From Acutalibacteraceae bacterium (GTDB taxonomy: Bacteria > Bacillota > Clostridia > Oscillospirales > Acutalibacteraceae): a DNA stretch of 64,000 bases. Below the pieces are notes generated by a model that ran no database searches, had not been told where the DNA came from, and worked only from the letters and a program-made list of their open reading frames with translations. The translations under genes and the position numbers were made by a program. Positions 59,147-64,000 of the stretch are shown here, one piece after another (position 1 is the stretch's first letter; every line of letters begins with the position of its first letter). The stretch spans positions 41,139-105,138 of the forward strand of contig JAZRTQ010000060.1 in NCBI GenBank assembly GCA_045652165.1. Reading direction: 5' to 3'.

Positions 59147-60097
59147 TTATTTAATCAAATCATTCTTCTTAATGAAATCAATTGTTTCGTCAACTGTCGT
59201 GAATGCAAGAGCAACGGTGGTATCAGCCGCACCGTAGTAAATTGCAATTCTGCCTGTTTCAGCATCTGCAAGAGCCGCACAGGGGAACACAACATTGGGC
59301 ACATCGCCAACGCATTCATAAAGCTCGTGAGGTGCAAGCAGGAAGCAATCTGCTCTGTGGAGCACCTTCCAGGGCTCATCCTTATCAAGGATTGCGGCGC
59401 CCATTGCATAGGTAAAGCCGTTACAGCTTGTAAGAACGCCGTGATAGAACATAAGCCAGCCTTCGTCTGTTTCAATGGGAGTGGGGCCTGCACCAACCTT
59501 GGTTGACTCCCAGATTTTCTGCGGCTGCATAACAAATCTGTGCTTGCCCCAATAGGTTAAATCCTTGCTGTGGCAAAGGAAAATATCGCCGTAGGGGGTA
59601 TGTCCTCTGTCGCAGGGACGGATGAGAAGAACATATTCATCATTTATCTTGCGGGGGAAGAGCACGCCGTTTCTTGCAACGGGATAGCAAGCATCCTCCA
59701 TCTGAACCCAATCTTTGAAGTTTTCGGTATAAGCAATACCGATGGTTGTGCCGTGAGGTGTAAGATTAACCCAGGAAAGATAATATTTGCCGTCAATTTC
59801 GCAGAGTCTGGGGTCATAGCCTCTGAAAATAACCTTTTCTTCAAGCTCCCAGTTGATTGCATCCTTACTGTATCCAACAACCAGAGTATGATCTCTCGAC
59901 ATCATATCTGCTCTGAAAACACCAGCAAAACCGTCGCCGTAAGGCACAACTGCGGAATTGAAAATGCTGTTTGCCATAAAAAGATTATCTCTTGTAATGA
60001 TAGGGTTGTTTGTGTATCTCCAAACGGGATATTTCCAACCCTCAGGCTTTTCCTGCCAAGGGATATTGGGAATGTTTGCTCCTATAATCTTTGCCAT
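59147..60097 (-). CDS. GH130 beta-mannoside phosphorylase (beta-1,4-mannosyl-GlcNAc/manno-oligosaccharide phosphorylase type)
   Basis: IPWQEKP, NSIFNSAVVP, YDPR, RNGVLFPRKI, KVGAGP.P, GDVPNVVFP, YYGAAD; ATG 60097. Confidence 0.88.
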   Translation of the reverse strand: MAKIIGANIPNIPWQEKPEGWKYPVWRYTNNPIITRDNLFMANSIFNSAVVPYGDGFAGVFRADMMSRDHTLVVGYSKDAINWELEEKVIFRGYDPRLCEIDGKYYLSWVNLTPHGTTIGIAYTENFKDWVQMEDACYPVARNGVLFPRKINDEYVLLIRPCDRGHTPYGDIFLCHSKDLTYWGKHRFVMQPQKIWESTKVGAGPTPIETDEGWLMFYHGVLTSCNGFTYAMGAAILDKDEPWKVLHRADCFLLAPHELYECVGDVPNVVFPCAALADAETGRIAIYYGAADTTVALAFTTVDETIDFIKKNDLIK

Positions 60098-60125
60098 ATA
60101 TATTTCTCCTTTATTTAATTTCTGT

Positions 60126-60716
60126 TCAGAATTTTCTGCGAAGCTCAACAACCTTGCCGATAACCGTTACGGGCAATTCCGCAACTTCTTCTTTAGTGAA
60201 AACCATAGGCTCATACGACGAATTTTCAGACACGAGCAAAATGCTTGTGTCTTTTTTTATAAGTTTCTTAACAACAGCCTCTTCATTGTTAACGTGAACA
60301 ACCGCAATATCTCCGCTTTCTGCATCAGGCTGGCAACGAACTATAACCGTATCATCGGGATGAAACAGCGGAAACATACTGTCACCGTTAATTTTTAACC
60401 CGAAATACTTGCCTCTTCCTGCTAGTTCCGCGCCGATTTCTTCATATCCGATTACATCTTCAACAGCCTGCGCGGGAACACCCGCTTTAACATAGCCGAG
60501 AACAGGCACAAGAACCTTGTTTTCCTGCAAAGTGTTGCCGAGAATCGCATCAGCCGAGGCTTCAAGAACTCTTGACAAAACAAGAACGCTTTCTTTATCG
60601 GGTGCGGTGCGGTTGTTTTCCCATTGACTGACCGCCGTCTGATGAACATCGCAAAGCTCTGCAAGCTTCTTTTGCGAATAACCTTTTTTCAGCCTCAGCT
60701 CTTTTATTGCGTTCAC
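60126..60716 (-). CDS. CI/LexA-like repressor: XRE HTH plus S24 autopeptidase
   Basis: SQKKLAE..DV.Q.AVSQWENN; catalytic GDSM and VVKK; GTG 60716 after GAGGGG. Confidence 0.9.
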   Translation of the reverse strand: MNAIKELRLKKGYSQKKLAELCDVHQTAVSQWENNRTAPDKESVLVLSRVLEASADAILGNTLQENKVLVPVLGYVKAGVPAQAVEDVIGYEEIGAELAGRGKYFGLKINGDSMFPLFHPDDTVIVRCQPDAESGDIAVVHVNNEEAVVKKLIKKDTSILLVSENSSYEPMVFTKEEVAELPVTVIGKVVELRRKF

Positions 60717-60753
60717 GCTTCCGCCCCCTCTTGCAGTTTTTTCATACAAATAT

Positions 60754-60782
60754 ATTATGAGTGCCACTATTGAAAAAGTCAA
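60754..60782 (-). promoter_or_regulatory. Repressor promoter
   Basis: Minus strand TTGACT, 17 nt, CATAAT. Confidence 0.7.
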
Positions 60783-60812
60783 TAACAAATTAAAATTTTC
60801 TCAACTTTACAC

Positions 60813-60841
60813 TTGACAAACGAACATTTGTTCACTAGAAT
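60813..60841 (+). promoter_or_regulatory. Sigma-A promoter with Firmicutes SOS (LexA) box in the spacer
   Basis: TTGACA (60813-60818), 17 nt, TAGAAT (60836-60841); CGAACATTTGTTCA at 60821-60834 has the GAAC-N4-GTTC core. Confidence 0.8.
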
Positions 60842-60858
60842 TAATAGTACCGCTATTA
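60842..60858. promoter_or_regulatory. Candidate CI operator over the transcription start
   Basis: Palindrome TAATAG-TACCG-CTATTA; related site TATGAGTGCCACTATTG at 60756-60772 (12/17 identical). Confidence 0.5.
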
Positions 60859-60885
60859 CTTAAGCGGAATTTCAGGAGGTAAACC

Positions 60886-61533
60886 TTGGTTATGGATTTA
60901 AATGATACTTTTTTCAGCTTTCCGGATGAGCAGGAAATAAAAGCGGCTCAGGCAGCGTGCTGCGGCAGATACTGCACCGCCTGCGAAGCACCCGCAGAAT
61001 ATGCCTGGAGAAAAAGAAGCGTTGACCTTTCAATTCTTCTTGAAGCGGCAATTGAAGCGGAACTGACTGCACTTGAGCAGAAAATCATAAAAGATTTCTG
61101 GTTCAACTCAAAAACAATCACGGTTATTTCCAAAGAAAGAGGAGTTGCTCCCTCCAGCATAAGCTCAACGCTCGACAGAGCTCAGAGCAAACTGAAAAAA
61201 GCTCTCGGTTACATAATCAGATACCAGCACGATATTGATAACGAATCCATCATACCTCTTGCACTCGGCAAGGCAAGGGTTATTGCGGCGGCAAGAAACG
61301 CATCGGGCGGCACCTCCGCGCAAAGAATAATGCGTTTAAGGCAGAGTCAGAATCTTTCAAGAAAAATTCTGAGCAAAGCTTTGGGCATTTCCCAGACAAG
61401 GCTTGAAAACCTTGAACACGGCAAAGCCCCTTTAAATTTGCAGGAGCTTACGGCAATAAGCGAATTCTTTTCGGTATCAACCGATTTTATTTTGAAAGGA
61501 GTAGATTTCAACGGAAAAGAAAAGTCTTTATGA
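60886..61533 (+). CDS. Sigma-70 region 4-like HTH fused to an XRE HTH (putative phage-type activator)
   Basis: LT..EQKII..F...KT...IS.ERGV..SSIS..L.RA..KL; C-terminal LRQ..NLS...L...LGIS..RL..LE.G. Confidence 0.7.
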   Translation: MVMDLNDTFFSFPDEQEIKAAQAACCGRYCTACEAPAEYAWRKRSVDLSILLEAAIEAELTALEQKIIKDFWFNSKTITVISKERGVAPSSISSTLDRAQSKLKKALGYIIRYQHDIDNESIIPLALGKARVIAAARNASGGTSAQRIMRLRQSQNLSRKILSKALGISQTRLENLEHGKAPLNLQELTAISEFFSVSTDFILKGVDFNGKEKSL

Positions 61534-61534
61534 A

Positions 61535-61762
61535 TTGGGAACGGAATATGAAAAAGCTGCCGTAACCATTAAAACCCGTATTTCCGAAAGGAGAGCAAAG
61601 CTAAGGTCGCTAAAAAACGGAATCTGCTCCAAGGAAGCATTCATTCTTAAAAGCGAGCTTAATCAGCTCTACAGAGAATACAGGGATTGCAGAGAAACAG
61701 CAGAATATCTGAAACATTATTATGAAAAAGAAAGAAAAAAGAACGGAGCATTTGAAATATGA
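61535..61762 (+). CDS. Small basic coiled-coil protein of unknown function
   Basis: Coupled to neighbours; frame is open back to an ACG at 61511 behind AAGGAG. Confidence 0.65.
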   Translation: MGTEYEKAAVTIKTRISERRAKLRSLKNGICSKEAFILKSELNQLYREYRDCRETAEYLKHYYEKERKKNGAFEI

Positions 61763-62670
61763 ATACTATAGTTATATCAGAAGTTTCGGAAAACTTTGAG
61801 CTTTCAGCCGAATCCTCACAAGGATTCTCGGGCGAGCATAATGCCGAAACACTTGAAATAAACATCTCTCCGCTTATTCCCCAAGGATTTGATTACTATG
61901 TTCTGATTTTCGATGATTCATCGGTCAGCGGAGTTTTTAAATCGAATGAAATAAGAGGAGAAACCGACTACCCCGCATATATCAGCGGTGAAACAATAGT
62001 TTGTCCGCTTTCTTCACAGCTCACATCAACGGGCAGACTGAAATTTCAGCTTGAAGCACACAAAAACACCGAAAACGGTTCAATAATCAAAAAGACCTCG
62101 GTTGCTTCACTTGAATTCAAGCCTTCAATTATGGGCGGCAACGATATGCTTTTCAATCAGGACTATACTACAAAGCTTGATGAGCTTGACAAAAAAATTC
62201 TCGAATTATCGAAAGCTGTTGAATCTGTCCGTCAAATTCCTCTTGCTTCAACCTCAACCGTCGGCGGCATAAAACTTTCCTCTTCTTCGCCCATAACGCT
62301 CACCGAAAACGGAGCTGCAGATTTGGATATATCCAATATCAAAGAAATCAGTCTTGCGGCGAAGCTCATAATGTCACTTATGTATAACAGCACAAAAGCA
62401 AAATGCATTTATCAGAAAACCTGCGAAGAGGACACAAGAACCCTTTACTCATCAACTTCACAAGTAGTTGCCGGCAACTATGATTATGTGCTTTTCTATA
62501 CCGAAACAAACGGAACGATAAACTATCGAAATGCCGCAGGAGAAAAAGTTGACTTGAAAGCATCAAGCCAATATATTTACTGTTTCACCGGTTCAGGCAG
62601 CAATTTTACCGTTAAGGAATATAACAGAAATTCTTTCCGCGAGCTTCTTTTGGAAGGGGCGGTTAAATGA
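61759..62670 (+). CDS. BppU N-terminal-domain / tail-fibre-like protein
   Basis: GEHNA.TL.I and LT.TG.L.FQLEA resemble BppU_N; IPLAS.STVGGIKL resembles a tail-fibre repeat. Confidence 0.55.
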   Translation: MNTIVISEVSENFELSAESSQGFSGEHNAETLEINISPLIPQGFDYYVLIFDDSSVSGVFKSNEIRGETDYPAYISGETIVCPLSSQLTSTGRLKFQLEAHKNTENGSIIKKTSVASLEFKPSIMGGNDMLFNQDYTTKLDELDKKILELSKAVESVRQIPLASTSTVGGIKLSSSSPITLTENGAADLDISNIKEISLAAKLIMSLMYNSTKAKCIYQKTCEEDTRTLYSSTSQVVAGNYDYVLFYTETNGTINYRNAAGEKVDLKASSQYIYCFTGSGSNFTVKEYNRNSFRELLLEGAVK

Positions 62671-63215
62671 GCAAAAAAATCTGCATACTCGTTGGTCACG
62701 GAAAATCCGATAACGGCGGATACGACAGCGGAGCGGTCAGCATAGGCGGCAATTATCACGAATTTAAAATCGCAAAAGAAATCGCGAAACACGCCGCCGA
62801 ATATCTGAACTGTGACATTATGAACTATGAAGGCAACCTCAACCTTCGCCAGAGAATAAAAGCGGTAAATTCTGCAAATTACGATTTTATCGCAGAAGTT
62901 CATCTCAATGCGGGCGGCGGCACGGGGCCCGAGGTTTATTATTATCACGGCTCTCCGACGGGTCTTAAAACAGCAAAAGCAATATGCAAAGAAATTTCAT
63001 CGCAGTTTTCTGTGCGAAACAGAGGTCCCAAGGTTAAAATGGGCAAAAACGGCAAGGATTATTTCGGTATAATCAGAGATACCAAGCCTTGTGCAATTCT
63101 GATTGAAACCCTGTTTATTGACCGCGTTTCAGACCTCAGCAAACTTGCTTCTGCCGAAGGGCAGAAAAAATGCGGTCAGGCAATCGGAAAAGCATTAAAA
63201 AACACTTTGCTTTGA
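62667..63215 (+). CDS. N-acetylmuramoyl-L-alanine amidase (Amidase_3) endolysin, catalytic domain only
   Basis: VGHG, HE, EVHLNA, G.EVYY, ILIETLFID; no signal peptide or binding domain. Confidence 0.9.
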   Translation: MSKKICILVGHGKSDNGGYDSGAVSIGGNYHEFKIAKEIAKHAAEYLNCDIMNYEGNLNLRQRIKAVNSANYDFIAEVHLNAGGGTGPEVYYYHGSPTGLKTAKAICKEISSQFSVRNRGPKVKMGKNGKDYFGIIRDTKPCAILIETLFIDRVSDLSKLASAEGQKKCGQAIGKALKNTLL

Positions 63216-63228
63216 GCGGGGTGAGAAA

Positions 63229-63429
63229 ATGGACTGGGATATTTTATTTTCATTTCTCGGCTCTGCCGCAGGATGCATTGCAGGCATAGTCACCTCACAA
63301 AGACTTACGGGCTACCGTCTTCAACAGCTTGAAGCAAAGGTCAACAAGCATAATAATCTTGTTGAAAGAATGACGGCAAGCGAAATCAGAATTCAGAATA
63401 TTGAAGAAAGGATAAGAGAAAGCATATGA
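63229..63429 (+). CDS. Small phage lysis-cassette membrane/coiled-coil protein (XhlA-like)
   Basis: N-terminal TM then YRL.QLE.KV.KHNNLVER, common beside phage holins. Confidence 0.6.
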   Translation: MDWDILFSFLGSAAGCIAGIVTSQRLTGYRLQQLEAKVNKHNNLVERMTASEIRIQNIEERIRESI

Positions 63430-63704
63430 ATAAAATCAAGGATATTATTTTTGCGCTTCAGGGTGTCACCGCAGGTGCTTGGATTCGCCTCGGAATTCTT
63501 GTTGCGGCAATCATAAGCACCGCGCTCCGCCTTTTCGGCGTTGATACGGTTGATTTCGGCAATGAGAACTTTGAAAATGCCGCAAATATCGTTGTGCTCG
63601 TTACAAGTGCCGCGGCGGCATACTGGAAAAACAATTCTTTCACCGAAGCCGCGCAGGCAGCAGACGAAGTGCTTCAGATTATAAAAAACAGAGAAAACGT
63701 TTGA
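63426..63704 (+). CDS. SPP1-family phage holin
   Basis: Two TM segments and the WKNNSFT..A signature. Confidence 0.85.
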   Translation: MNKIKDIIFALQGVTAGAWIRLGILVAAIISTALRLFGVDTVDFGNENFENAANIVVLVTSAAAAYWKNNSFTEAAQAADEVLQIIKNRENV

Positions 63705-63711
63705 TTTTTTC

Positions 63712-63740
63712 TTGACAAATAACCGTTCCTTCATTATAAT
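63712..63740 (+). promoter_or_regulatory. Sigma-A promoter of tRNA-Val
   Basis: TTGACA, 17 nt, TATAAT. Confidence 0.8.
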
Positions 63741-63765
63741 AACATCTGCACTTATGTGCAGGTGA

Positions 63766-63841
63766 GGACGTTTAGCTCAGCTGGTAGAGCATTCGCTTGA
63801 CGTGCGAAGGGTCAGCGGTTCAAGTCCGTTAACGTCCACCA
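63766..63841 (+). tRNA. tRNA-Val(GAC)
   Basis: Acceptor GGACGTT/AACGTCC; anticodon arm TTCGC-TTGACGT-GCGAA; TTCAAGT; CCA. Confidence 0.95.
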
Positions 63842-63914
63842 AACGGGCATTGGATGAACACTTATTTTTTCAAAGGCGGTTTCGCCGTAAGGGTTCCGAT
63901 CTGATGCAAAACAG

Positions 63915-63951
63915 AAAAGAGAGTCAAGGTTTAAAGCCTTGGCTCTCTTTT
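63915..63951 (+). terminator. Intrinsic terminator downstream of tRNA-Val
   Basis: AAAAGAGAGTCAAGG / CCTTGGCTCTCTTTT stem followed by T-rich tail. Confidence 0.75.
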
Positions 63952-64000
63952 GTTTATGTGTTGCTATGTTGTCATAGACTTACTGTCTTACCCATTTTCT

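Follow-up and report, generated by a model that had tools for sequence, protein, structure and literature searches.

A LexA-type SOS box and palindromic candidate operators at the divergent promoters of a small, putatively phage-derived lysis cassette in an Acutalibacteraceae bacterium

Background

Direct control of phage promoters by LexA and self-cleaving repressors of the CI type are both known. PBSX of B. subtilis reportedly has an xre repressor, a LexA-boxed xkdA gene and the lysis genes xhlA-xhlB-xlyA. The locus described here is a 3.6 kb unit of seven genes located between a host GH130 gene and a tRNA-Val gene in 64,000 nucleotides of DNA from an Acutalibacteraceae bacterium (the whole stretch analyzed, termed the window). 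It resembles PBSX, a defective prophage, in that both are from Firmicutes, have an XRE repressor region with a Cheo box, and combine an amidase and an SPP1-family holin with a small membrane protein in a lysis module, which in PBSX is a late one. PBSX differs in that it keeps genes for the head, the tail and packaging as well as a sigma-like activator, and its Xre is not known to have an S24 domain. Its lysis genes are far from the switch, whereas here they are in the first operon.

The CTXphi promoter PrstA is repressed by the phage protein RstR and by host LexA (Quinones, Kimsey and Waldor 2005, Mol Cell 17:291; PMC9502458). The likeness is that one promoter is under both an XRE-type repressor of the element and host LexA, and CTXphi induction needs LexA cleavage (PMC9502458). 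RstR is without an S24 domain or self-cleavage, which leaves LexA as the only RecA sensor, whereas both repressors of the present locus look RecA-sensitive. CTXphi is also a whole phage, filamentous and with a Gram-negative host, and has another type of LexA box.

The pyocin loci of P. aeruginosa (PrtR, PrtN; PMC8609362) are chromosomal and phage-derived, with a RecA-cleavable CI-like repressor acting on a regulator gene that leads to holin and endolysin expression and lysis of the producer; a similar arrangement is predicted here from sequence. They differ in having whole tail particles as cargo in place of a single baseplate-like protein, in having no LexA box on the prtN promoter in the known scheme, and in that the regulators are unrelated. 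In B. thuringiensis phage GIL01, host LexA acts with gp7 at promoter P1 (PMC4551915). This is also a Firmicute phage lytic promoter with SOS boxes where host LexA is the damage sensor, but GIL01 has no CI-type repressor and a small phage protein stabilizes LexA on the DNA. LexA-controlled antirepressors (coliphage 186 Tum and those of the Gifsy and Fels-2 type; PMC3121763) share LexA on an element promoter and a separate element repressor on the lytic genes. In these systems the two repressors act in series on different promoters, whereas here both sites are on one promoter. The present locus is unusual in three respects: both site types are on one promoter, the cassette it serves is chromosomal and minimal, and the first operon of this cassette already has the lysis genes.

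Results and discussion

Features of the control region

The region between the two divergent genes is 169 bp and has the following elements.

60754–60782, minus strand: PL, leftward promoter, with -35 TTGACT (60782–60777), a 17 nt spacer and -10 CATAAT (60759–60754)
60756–60772: OL, TATGAGTGCCACTATTG, TATGAG-N5-CTATTG, overlapping the PL -10 and spacer; predicted weaker operator
60813–60841, plus strand: PR, rightward promoter, with -35 TTGACA (60813–60818), a 17-nt spacer and -10 TAGAAT (60836–60841)
60821–60834: LexA (Cheo-type SOS) box cGAACATTTGTTCa (cGAAC-ATTT-GTTCa), inside the 17-nt PR spacer
60842–60858: OR, TAATAGTACCGCTATTA, perfect palindrome TAATAG-N5-CTATTA, abutting the PR -10

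The sequence-only reading had described PR with GAAC-ATTT-GTTC in its spacer, a 17-bp palindrome over the PR start, and a 12/17 variant of the palindrome overlapping PL. All are present where it placed them. PR has a score of 11/12, which places it among the top two promoter-like sites of positions 59900–64000; the PL score is 10/12. Across the 64-kb window, GAAC-N4-GTTC occurs exactly just once, as the LexA box core GAACATTTGTTC (positions 60822–60833), compared to 0.75 expected per window, and simple arithmetic gives a chance of approximately 1e-4 that an exact core lands inside the 17-nt PR spacer. The full box cGAACATTTGTTCa matches the consensus CGAAC-N4-GTTCG at 13 of 14 positions. The window is without SOS genes, and its box sites with one mismatch are present only at chance level.

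OR covers the predicted PR start site (position ~60848). It is the sole zero-mismatch match to TAATAG-N5-CTATTA in the 64-kb window and the sole match there to AATAG-N5-CTATT at one mismatch or fewer. OL is identical to OR at 12 of 17 positions; matches of this quality are common by chance (31 expected per window at three or fewer mismatches), and OL is significant only because it is conserved across loci, not from the quality of the match. The LexA box and OR do not overlap, and in the window their centers are ~22.5 bp apart. The lengths of the elements between them are fixed in every locus except L041, where the distance is 1 bp shorter. As judged from sequence, the 169 bp are best explained as the control region of two divergent promoters, with repressor sites of two kinds.

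Two other features were considered and rejected. A second perfect palindrome, TATTGA-N5-TCAATA (positions 60768–60784), is not conserved (L001 has TCAACA, and L017 and L033 differ) and was rejected as an operator; it arises from an OL arm together with the PL -35. Some loci, but not all, have a 5' hairpin that overlaps OR, and this hairpin is not part of the core mechanism. An automated inverted-repeat search of the region reported none, since the arms are shorter than the search seed. The search for an RNA-seq run with the window sequence found none, and it also found no near-identical DNA run, the best DNA runs having at most 13% of the sampled words.

Conservation across loci

All 18 homologous loci, which are at several chromosomal sites and have repressors 49–92% identical, share the promoter hexamers and the arms GAAC/GTTC and AATAG/CTATT without variation, while the N4, N5 and flanking positions vary freely. 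The GAAC and GTTC arms are at the identical position of the PR spacer in each of the 18, yet N4 takes at least six forms. Similarly in OR, AATAG and CTATT(A) are invariant (18/18) but N5 has 11 forms and a pairwise identity of 41%. The OL motif TA..AG-N5-CTATT is also kept in the 18 loci, with only 36% pairwise identity in N5.

Motif conservation across homologous loci had been proposed earlier as a check on these sites. When 16 distinct intergenic regions were aligned with MAFFT without constraints, 43 columns were invariant, and all are in OL arms, PL -35, PR -35, GAAC, GTTC, PR -10 or OR arms. Conservation of the sites is far above the intergenic background, where unconstrained parts have 36–60% pairwise identity. 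The PL -35 core GTCAA is invariant in the 16 aligned loci, and TTGAC and TA.AAT of PR are invariant across the aligned loci.

An inert prophage remnant, with sites kept by recent ancestry only and lysis genes in decay, might be suggested by the closest loci (L001, L002, L015–L017), which are ~90% identical overall. This reading has next to no probability and is already contradicted. The sites, unlike the bases beside them, are invariant even where repressor identity is 49–76% and synonymous divergence is saturated, and all seven open reading frames are intact and under purifying selection, with dN/dS of 0.00–0.27. The dS values for these comparisons are 0.16–2.6 (0.16–0.18 for the 66-aa and holin genes compared to L001). 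The earlier view that the signals are well kept is borne out by these same observations.

The S24 repressor and the SOS box of the clade

By domain searches, the leftward gene encodes an XRE-S24 protein.

60126–60716, minus strand: XRE-HTH and Peptidase_S24 repressor gene, 196 aa, GTG start, with the RBS GAGGGGG upstream

Pfam matches are HTH_3 (1.4e-14, residues 4–56) and Peptidase_S24 (9.5e-26, residues 71–190). The cleavage motifs are intact, i.e., Ala-Gly (VKAG), Ser (GDSM) and Lys (VKKL), and are kept in all 196-aa homologs. The HTH sequence 'VHQTAVSQWE..RT.PD' is invariant in 13 homologs, the recognition helix is likewise invariant, and the repressor dN/dS is 0.07–0.14. The closest PHROG families are phage repressors. 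The protein was rejected as a canonical LexA, since TIGR00498 gives 80 bits compared to a cut-off of 111 and aligns only to residues 58–196, the S24 part.

The 196-aa cleavable type is found in nine of nine examined loci with lysis genes (the window, L001, L002, L017, L033, L040, L045–L048; L034 repeats L033 and was left out). L015, which was left out of the alignment, also has lysis genes and a repressor 91% identical. The five loci that lack lysis genes all encode a repressor of 182 aa without the A-G loop, and in four of these five Ser or Lys has been lost as well. OR and OL are unchanged in this uncleavable subfamily, which implies that relief at OR need not involve RecA in general.

The GAAC-N4-GTTC box had been taken as a Firmicutes LexA site, and evidence from a related genome and from other Clostridia supports this. 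The uvrB promoter of related genome L035 reads TATAAT-CACTAT-GAACATTTGTTC, with the box just downstream of the -10. The presence of the same box on this promoter indicates that GAAC-N4-GTTC is the SOS box of the clade. In other Clostridia, LexA of C. thermocellum has the B. subtilis-type motif (PMC8457756), and uvrB of C. difficile has GAAC....GTTC at -30 (PMC4234289).

It may be asked if the XRE-S24 protein is itself the SOS repressor, binding GAAC-N4-GTTC in place of LexA in the manner of HdiR or UmuDAb. No canonical lexA was seen in ~440 kb of related sequence, a small sample, and more distant S24-XRE homologs (L005, L025, L026) face away from a gene for a Y-family polymerase, an arrangement shared with HdiR-type cassettes. 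Against this, the module repressor of L035 is without the cleavage loop and catalytic Ser, and a separate cleavable LexA must therefore serve the L035 uvrB box. The repressor's own promoter bears an AATAG-type site and not a GAAC box, and a canonical LexA with the GAAC motif is reported for Clostridia in the two papers cited above. A LexA substitute is very improbable.

We infer that OR and OL, as predicted operators, belong to the S24 protein, although the protein that binds the AATAG palindromes could be the S24 repressor, the 215-aa regulator encoded by the first rightward gene, or both.

Genes of the rightward operon

Six genes are downstream of PR.

60886–61533, plus strand: 215-aa regulator, first gene of the PR operon, with RBS AGGAGG at 60874–60879
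61535–61762, plus strand: 75-aa helical protein, always beside the regulator
61759–62670, plus strand: 303-aa protein whose N-terminal Ig domain is phage-baseplate-like, with a coiled coil and, at the C-terminus, an alpha/beta domain
62667–63215, plus strand: N-acetylmuramoyl-L-alanine amidase, endolysin type, catalytic domain only
63229–63429, plus strand: 66-aa protein; hydrophobic segment at the N-terminus, coiled coil
63426–63704, plus strand: SPP1-type holin, 92 aa, last gene of the operon

Neighboring genes overlap or abut, with gaps of at most 13 bp, which leaves no space for an internal intergenic promoter.

The regulator has an invariant N-terminal CCGRxCxxCE..YAWRKR motif, a sigma-70 region-4-like HTH (Pfam) and a C-terminal HTH of the Cro/c2 type. 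In the AF2 model the C-terminal domain matches P22 c2, 434 Cro and SinR. The Cro/c2 fold is confined to the C-terminal 65 residues, the remainder being the conserved Cys motif and region-4-like HTH, and the full-length protein has no structural neighbor. Homologs form at least 158 clusters, all of ~210 aa. No full-length relative was found in 50,697 GenBank phages and no relative in three scans of IMG/VR. Exact-protein look-ups for the window regulator and amidase found no record. As a candidate Cro gene the first rightward gene fits poorly, given the product length of 215 aa, its two HTH domains and a family with no member found in GenBank phages or IMG/VR. The 75-aa protein has a counterpart in every module locus as a gene of 79–85 aa (dN/dS 0.13–0.21). 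It has no family match, with only chance-level Pfam matches, and could be an antirepressor.

The properties of the regulator bear on the question of what binds AATAG-N5-CTATT. It may be a Cro- or SinR-like autoregulator that is the main protein at these sites, with the S24 protein acting elsewhere or weakly and LexA as the sole SOS sensor of PR. Its C-terminal Cro/c2/SinR-type HTH and second, region-4-like HTH are in keeping with this, as are its presence with the switch in every locus and the unchanged sites in the 182-aa subfamily, where the S24 protein is uncleavable. However, the half-sites and the S24 recognition helix are both without variation; OL is on the promoter of the S24 gene itself, the usual place for autoregulation; and conservation of the HTH region is lower in the regulator than in the repressor. 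We consider this alternative unlikely, at perhaps one chance in several.

The 303-aa protein shows no Pfam, PHROG, NCBIfam, PDB-sequence or GenBank-phage match, and the lead to its nature comes only from fold comparison. Its AF2 model (pLDDT 78) gives Foldseek matches to baseplate chains of phages NF5 and 80alpha with E values of 2e-5 to 4e-4. Homologs are in 34 clusters, and all with readable context are in the same cassette (L001, L002, L015, L017, L033/L034, L040, L045–L048). The gene is the fastest-evolving of the cassette (dN/dS 0.17–0.27). Tail tube and sheath genes are absent, and this baseplate-like protein is the only candidate for a released cargo.

The amidase matches Pfam Amidase_3 (4.7e-26) and the PHROG endolysin family (7.9e-43) and has a dN/dS of 0.05–0.08. 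The 66-aa protein matches phrog_1863 (2.3e-9, function unknown), with only chance-level Pfam matches and a dN/dS of 0–0.07. Its gene is translationally coupled to that of the holin, and the protein is probably a holin accessory. It presumably resembles B. subtilis XhlA. The holin matches Pfam Holin_SPP1 (8e-17) and the PHROG holin family (dN/dS 0–0.14).

The locus might be read as the lysis-lysogeny switch of a prophage. In this view a functional temperate prophage would have a CI/Cro immunity switch here, and host LexA would be a further lock on its lytic development. The view finds agreement in an S24-XRE repressor divergent from an HTH gene, in nearest PHROG families that are phage repressors, and in the phage-type amidase, holin and baseplate-like protein. 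But in the 3.6 kb element, bounded by host GH130 and tRNA-Val, genes for integrase, replication, packaging, terminase, portal, capsid and tail tube are all absent. The seven-gene unit recurs in at least 10 loci, and a three-gene version of the switch, without lysis genes, is at conserved host loci beside ftsEX-M23-ctpA or uvrBA. The regulator and 303-aa protein have no GenBank phage relatives, and the regulator has none in IMG/VR. A prophage switch is highly improbable on these grounds. Gene content and order, fixation and selection agree with a predicted damage-responsive repressor upstream of holin and endolysin genes in a non-replicating chromosomal locus, as in SOS-induced producer-lysis cassettes of the pyocin, colicin or PBSX kind. 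The sequence-only reading as a whole is partly supported. The well-kept sites, the S24 repressor and the operon ending in amidase and holin genes stand; a prophage switch and a Cro are not supported.

Proposed mechanism

The explanation we favor, and hold to be rather likely from the sequence features, is a domesticated, chromosomally fixed, phage-derived and SOS-triggered lysis cassette with a double lock of LexA and a self-cleaving repressor. PL would transcribe the XRE-S24 repressor gene, and PR the six-gene operon that runs from the regulator gene to those of the 66-aa membrane protein and the holin. In the undamaged cell, host LexA would be bound to GAAC-N4-GTTC between the PR -35 and -10, and an S24 repressor dimer on OR, over the start site, would provide a second block of PR. 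The S24 repressor on the weaker OL, over the PL -10, would limit its own synthesis. Upon DNA damage, activated RecA would promote self-cleavage of both LexA and the S24 repressor. PR would fire only after both are cleaved, and the amidase and holin would then lyse the cell.

We infer the pairing of sites with proteins, the self-cleavage of the repressor, the AND logic and the lysis output from these features. That lysis may require loss of both repressors, as had been proposed earlier, is a reasonable reading because the PR operon ends in amidase and holin genes. A lethal operon under direct SOS control would be costly, and the output might be weaker, heterogeneous or in need of the regulator as a further step.

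Significance

With 169 bp and two proteins, the locus is a small natural system for how two RecA-sensitive repressors may set an induction threshold. The regulator and its 80-aa partner represent an undescribed, widely conserved and probably SOS-controlled pair that adjoins cell-division genes. The cleavable repressor accompanies the lethal payload in every locus examined for both, which provides a natural experiment on why double locks evolve.

A broader and more tentative proposal, which we think possible but somewhat less than evenly likely, is that gut Oscillospirales (Acutalibacteraceae and relatives) have long passed on this cassette by vertical descent as an autolysis device with two keys. 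It would place a phage-derived amidase-holin pair and a fast-evolving baseplate-like possible cargo in the first SOS operon, and would fire only once LexA and the cassette repressor are both destroyed. Loss of the payload would be followed by decay of the repressor protease, with LexA left as the sole damage input to the conserved regulator pair. The findings point to programmed, damage-induced lysis in abundant, poorly studied gut anaerobes. Such lysis could affect the release of DNA and enzymes, community turnover and responses to DNA-damaging drugs.

Elements of the control region

The intergenic region at 60717–60885 separates two divergent genes and has a rightward (PR) and a leftward (PL) promoter, with a palindromic candidate operator at each (OR and OL).

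Features of the control region and of the two divergent genes
60126–60716, minus strand: XRE-S24 repressor gene, 196 aa; GTG start, GAGGGGG before the start
60756–60772: OL, TATGAGTGCCACTATTG, matching the OR palindrome at 12/17 positions and overlapping the -10 and spacer of PL
60782–60777 (TTGACT), 17 nt, 60759–60754 (CATAAT), minus strand: PL, from sequence
60813–60818 (TTGACA), 17 nt, 60836–60841 (TAGAAT), plus strand: PR, from sequence
60821–60834: LexA-type box, cGAACATTTGTTCa, within the PR spacer
60842–60858: OR palindrome, TAATAGTACCGCTATTA, directly 3' of the PR -10
60886–61533, plus strand: gene of the 215-aa regulator; TTG start six bases past AGGAGG

The sequence-only reading proposed a LexA box and candidate CI operators on back-to-back promoters, and every element it listed is present. 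OR abuts the PR -10 and thus covers the expected start site near 60848. An exact GAAC-N4-GTTC occurs once in the 64 kb (0.75 expected). The perfect palindrome is unique in the window, even with one mismatch permitted in AATAG-N5-CTATT; OL by itself is a match of unremarkable quality. The LexA box and OR are non-overlapping sites with centres about 22.5 bp apart, i.e., roughly two helical turns, so that LexA and an OR-bound protein could occupy the DNA together.

An inverted repeat, CCGCT-N8-AGCGG (60851–60868), overlaps the right arm of OR; in RNA made from PR it would fold into a hairpin close to the 5' end. Different yet complementary bases are found at the same spot in three homologous loci (CGGCT/AGCCG in L017, GTCG/CGAC in L045 and TCAC/GTGA in L046), and the hairpin is absent from several others.

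Conservation of the switch

Homologous loci (L numbers) were obtained from repressor scans and from look-ups of homologs of the 215-aa regulator and of a 303-aa protein of the PR operon. They are mostly from metagenome assemblies, with taxonomy given at the 'Acutalibacteraceae / Clostridia' level, and distant relatives can escape the pattern-based collection scans. The repressor-regulator pair is present in 18 loci. Their repressors share between 49% and 92% identity with that of the window, and synonymous divergence is saturated in the more distant loci (dS 1–2.6). One template fits all 18: TA..AG-N5-CTATT. / 3–5 nt /.GTCAA / 27–31 nt / TTGAC. / N3 / GAAC-N4-GTTC / N2 / TA..AT / 0–1 nt / AATAG-N5-CTATT. 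A template-free alignment agrees: it has 43 invariant columns, which correspond exactly to the OL arms, both -35 cores, GAAC, GTTC, the PR -10 and the OR arms.

Pairwise identity is 41% in the OR N5 (11 forms), 36% in the OL N5 (15 forms), 60% in the LexA box N4 (6 forms), 51% in the 28–30 bp between the promoters and 39% in the 5' leader; the unconstrained stretches are near random for such A+T-rich DNA. With invariant columns beside variable N4, N5 and flanks, the sites are clearly kept above intergenic background, contrary to what the sequence-only reading named as grounds for its refutation. Invariant arms with free centres are a pattern characteristic of dimeric protein binding sites, here predicted ones.

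Candidate binding proteins

The 196-aa protein has an XRE-type helix-turn-helix (HTH_3, 1.4e-14) and a Peptidase_S24 domain (9.5e-26). It is the best candidate for binding the AATAG-N5-CTATT palindromes because its HTH, 'VHQTAVSQWE..RT.PD', is strictly invariant in 13 of 13 aligned homologs, as are the half-sites, and because the weaker palindrome, OL, is on its own promoter, the usual layout of negative autoregulation. The 215-aa regulator, whose C-terminus also models as a Cro/c2/SinR-like HTH (AF2 model, Foldseek RMSD about 1 Å), is another possible binder of the palindromes, alongside the repressor or in competition with it.

Several repressor homologs have other surroundings. The repressor leader in L045–L048 has about 50 extra bases and a GC-rich hairpin (e.g., GCCGGAAGA-ATCTTCGGGC) that is absent in the window clade. 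L014 (2660–2930), on a mouflon co-assembly contig, encodes a 90% identical homolog; upstream there is no switch, regulator or lysis gene, and in their place are many repeats of GTGAAGT-type hairpins followed up by a co-oriented 456-aa gene, an arrangement that rearrangement or chimeric assembly may explain. In L005, L025 and L026 the genes of more remote S24-XRE homologs (35% identity) are transcribed away from a Y-family DNA polymerase gene (MERTIFHCDLNSFYASVE...). The intergenic region there has a long palindrome, TTGAAAATAATTCAAGTTG...CAACTTGAATTATTTTCAAG, and no GAAC box, and the arrangement looks like an HdiR/UmuC-type mutagenesis cassette.

LexA of the B. subtilis type has GAAC-N4-GTTC as its operator. 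Support for this operator type in Clostridia comes from DAP-seq of the C. thermocellum protein (PMC8457756) and from the GAAC....GTTC at -30 of uvrB in the C. difficile regulon (PMC4234289). In L035 the module adjoins uvrB-uvrA and the uvrB promoter is TATAAT-CACTAT-GAACATTTGTTC-ATAG; a canonical SOS gene of this clade thus uses the box. The L035 module repressor is without the cleavage loop and the catalytic serine and therefore cannot be the damage-sensitive protein serving the uvrB box. These sequences imply a separate LexA in the L035 genome; the lexA gene itself was not found in the homologous loci examined. The module repressor was rejected as the canonical LexA, as it scores 80 bits against TIGR00498 (cut-off 111), in the S24 part only.

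The PR operon

PR precedes six overlapping or abutting genes, which encode the regulator, a 75-aa helical protein, the 303-aa protein, an Amidase_3 endolysin, a 66-aa membrane/coiled-coil protein and an SPP1-type holin. With the repressor gene they form a seven-gene cassette. Purifying selection acts on each of the seven (dN/dS 0.00–0.27), most strongly on the amidase, 66-aa protein and holin, and the 303-aa protein has the highest rate of evolution.

In the regulator a C-terminal HTH_3 is accompanied by a weak match to sigma-70 region 4. Its family comprises at least 158 clusters at 90% identity, with about 60 representatives at E<1e-30. Residues 13–47 (window 60886–61030) include a strictly invariant pattern with four cysteines, P...E...AQ..CCGR.C..CE.P..YAWRKR.VD, which suggests a metal-binding or redox-sensing N-terminus in a part where AF2 confidence is low (pLDDT 54–61). 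Searches of phage collections did not recover the family: matches in GenBank phages were generic HTH ones only, and scans of IMG/VR yielded none.

No sequence family matches the 303-aa protein. In an AF2 model (pLDDT 78) its N-terminus forms an Ig-like domain resembling siphophage NF5 and 80alpha baseplate proteins (E 2e-5 to 4e-4). Because this fold is followed by lysis genes, the right half of the cassette looks like the distal part of a phage late operon, i.e., the last tail gene and the lysis genes.

The window-clade amidase (182 aa) is a catalytic domain only. In more distant cassettes it is 248–250 aa (L046 3754–4500, L047 8039–8791 and L048 7791–8543), with a weak SH3_3 wall-binding match in L047 and L048 and Amidase_3 alone in the L046 record.

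Boundaries and distribution

The repressor gene is flanked on the left by host genes (GH130, MATE transporter, DUF5685). On the right the cassette ends 8 bp before a tRNA-Val promoter, with tRNA-Val 61 bp downstream of the holin gene. With these flanks, and without integrase, replication, terminase, portal, capsid and tail-tube genes, the element is not a prophage.

The tRNA-Val (GAC) gene (63766–63841) has its own perfect promoter, TTGACA-17-TATAAT (63712–63740). No terminator-like site is present between the holin gene and tRNA-Val, the first being at 63915–63951, and transcription from PR may therefore continue into tRNA-Val. In the two closest genomes (L001 and L002, 6566–8527) a gene for a 653-aa EF-G-family GTPase, absent from the window, lies between the repressor gene and GH130 and overlaps the repressor 3' end. 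Its GTP_EFTU, EFG_IV and EFG_C domains are an architecture typical of ribosomal-protection proteins of the Tet(M)/Tet(W) type.

The seven-gene cassette is found in at least 10 loci: the window, L001, L002, L015, L017, L033/L034, L040, L045, L046, L047 and L048. These occupy several chromosomal sites, and their 303-aa proteins can be as little as about 32% identical. As judged from sequence comparison, the cassette is a conserved unit and not the product of a recent deletion. Many genomes have only the first three genes (repressor, regulator and a protein of roughly 80 aa), with an identical switch layout. This core adjoins ftsE-ftsX-M23 peptidase-S41 CtpA in L018, L037–39 and L041–44, and uvrB-uvrA in L035/36. 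The full lysis cassette is at the ftsEX-ctpA locus in L047 and L048; thus both forms are versions of one inherited locus.

In L037 (9593–14633) there are three tandem large serine recombinase genes where spoVAC is shortened to 46 aa; at the equivalent place in L038 (9592–10032) spoVAC is intact. The recombinase stretch is a separate mobile element inserted near, and outside, the module.

Related systems

PBSX of B. subtilis is a near system. The closest in logic is CTXphi PrstA, on which LexA and RstR act as joint repressors (Quinones et al. 2005; PMC9502458), although RstR does not cleave itself. Biologically, the P. aeruginosa pyocin locus comes nearest, with the S24 repressor PrtR, the activator PrtN, a holin and a lysin (PMC8609362). 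LexA also acts directly on phage promoters in GIL01 (PMC4551915) and in LexA-controlled antirepressors (PMC3121763). By comparison with these systems the control is a variation on a known type, and the cassette beneath it is undescribed, widely conserved and chromosomal.

Two repressor subfamilies and a proposed mechanism

In loci with lysis genes the repressor is 196 aa with VxAG, GDSM and VKKL intact (nine of nine with repressor sequence examined; L015, which has lysis genes and a 91% identical repressor, was left out of the alignment). In loci without lysis genes (L018, L035, L037, L041 and L044) it is 182 aa, and a 13-residue deletion removes the Ala-Gly loop. The serine is Gly, Lys or Ala in three of these five and the lysine is lost in two; one or the other is replaced in four, L037 alone having both. 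The HTH and both operators are unchanged. Across loci a repressor of cleavable type, as classed by motifs, correlates with the lethal payload, and the two may be causally connected.

A double-lock mechanism of SOS lysis is, as a whole, a reasonably likely account of the cassette. In the undamaged cell PR would be held shut by LexA bound within its spacer as well as by the repressor at OR, and repressor on OL would curb its own synthesis. Activated RecA would induce self-cleavage of both proteins, and PR, firing only once both are lost, would then transcribe the regulator, small protein, baseplate-like protein, amidase and holin; expression of the last two would lyse the cell. The need to lose both repressors would guard against chance expression of an operon that kills the cell, and in loci that no longer have the payload, damage would be sensed through LexA alone.
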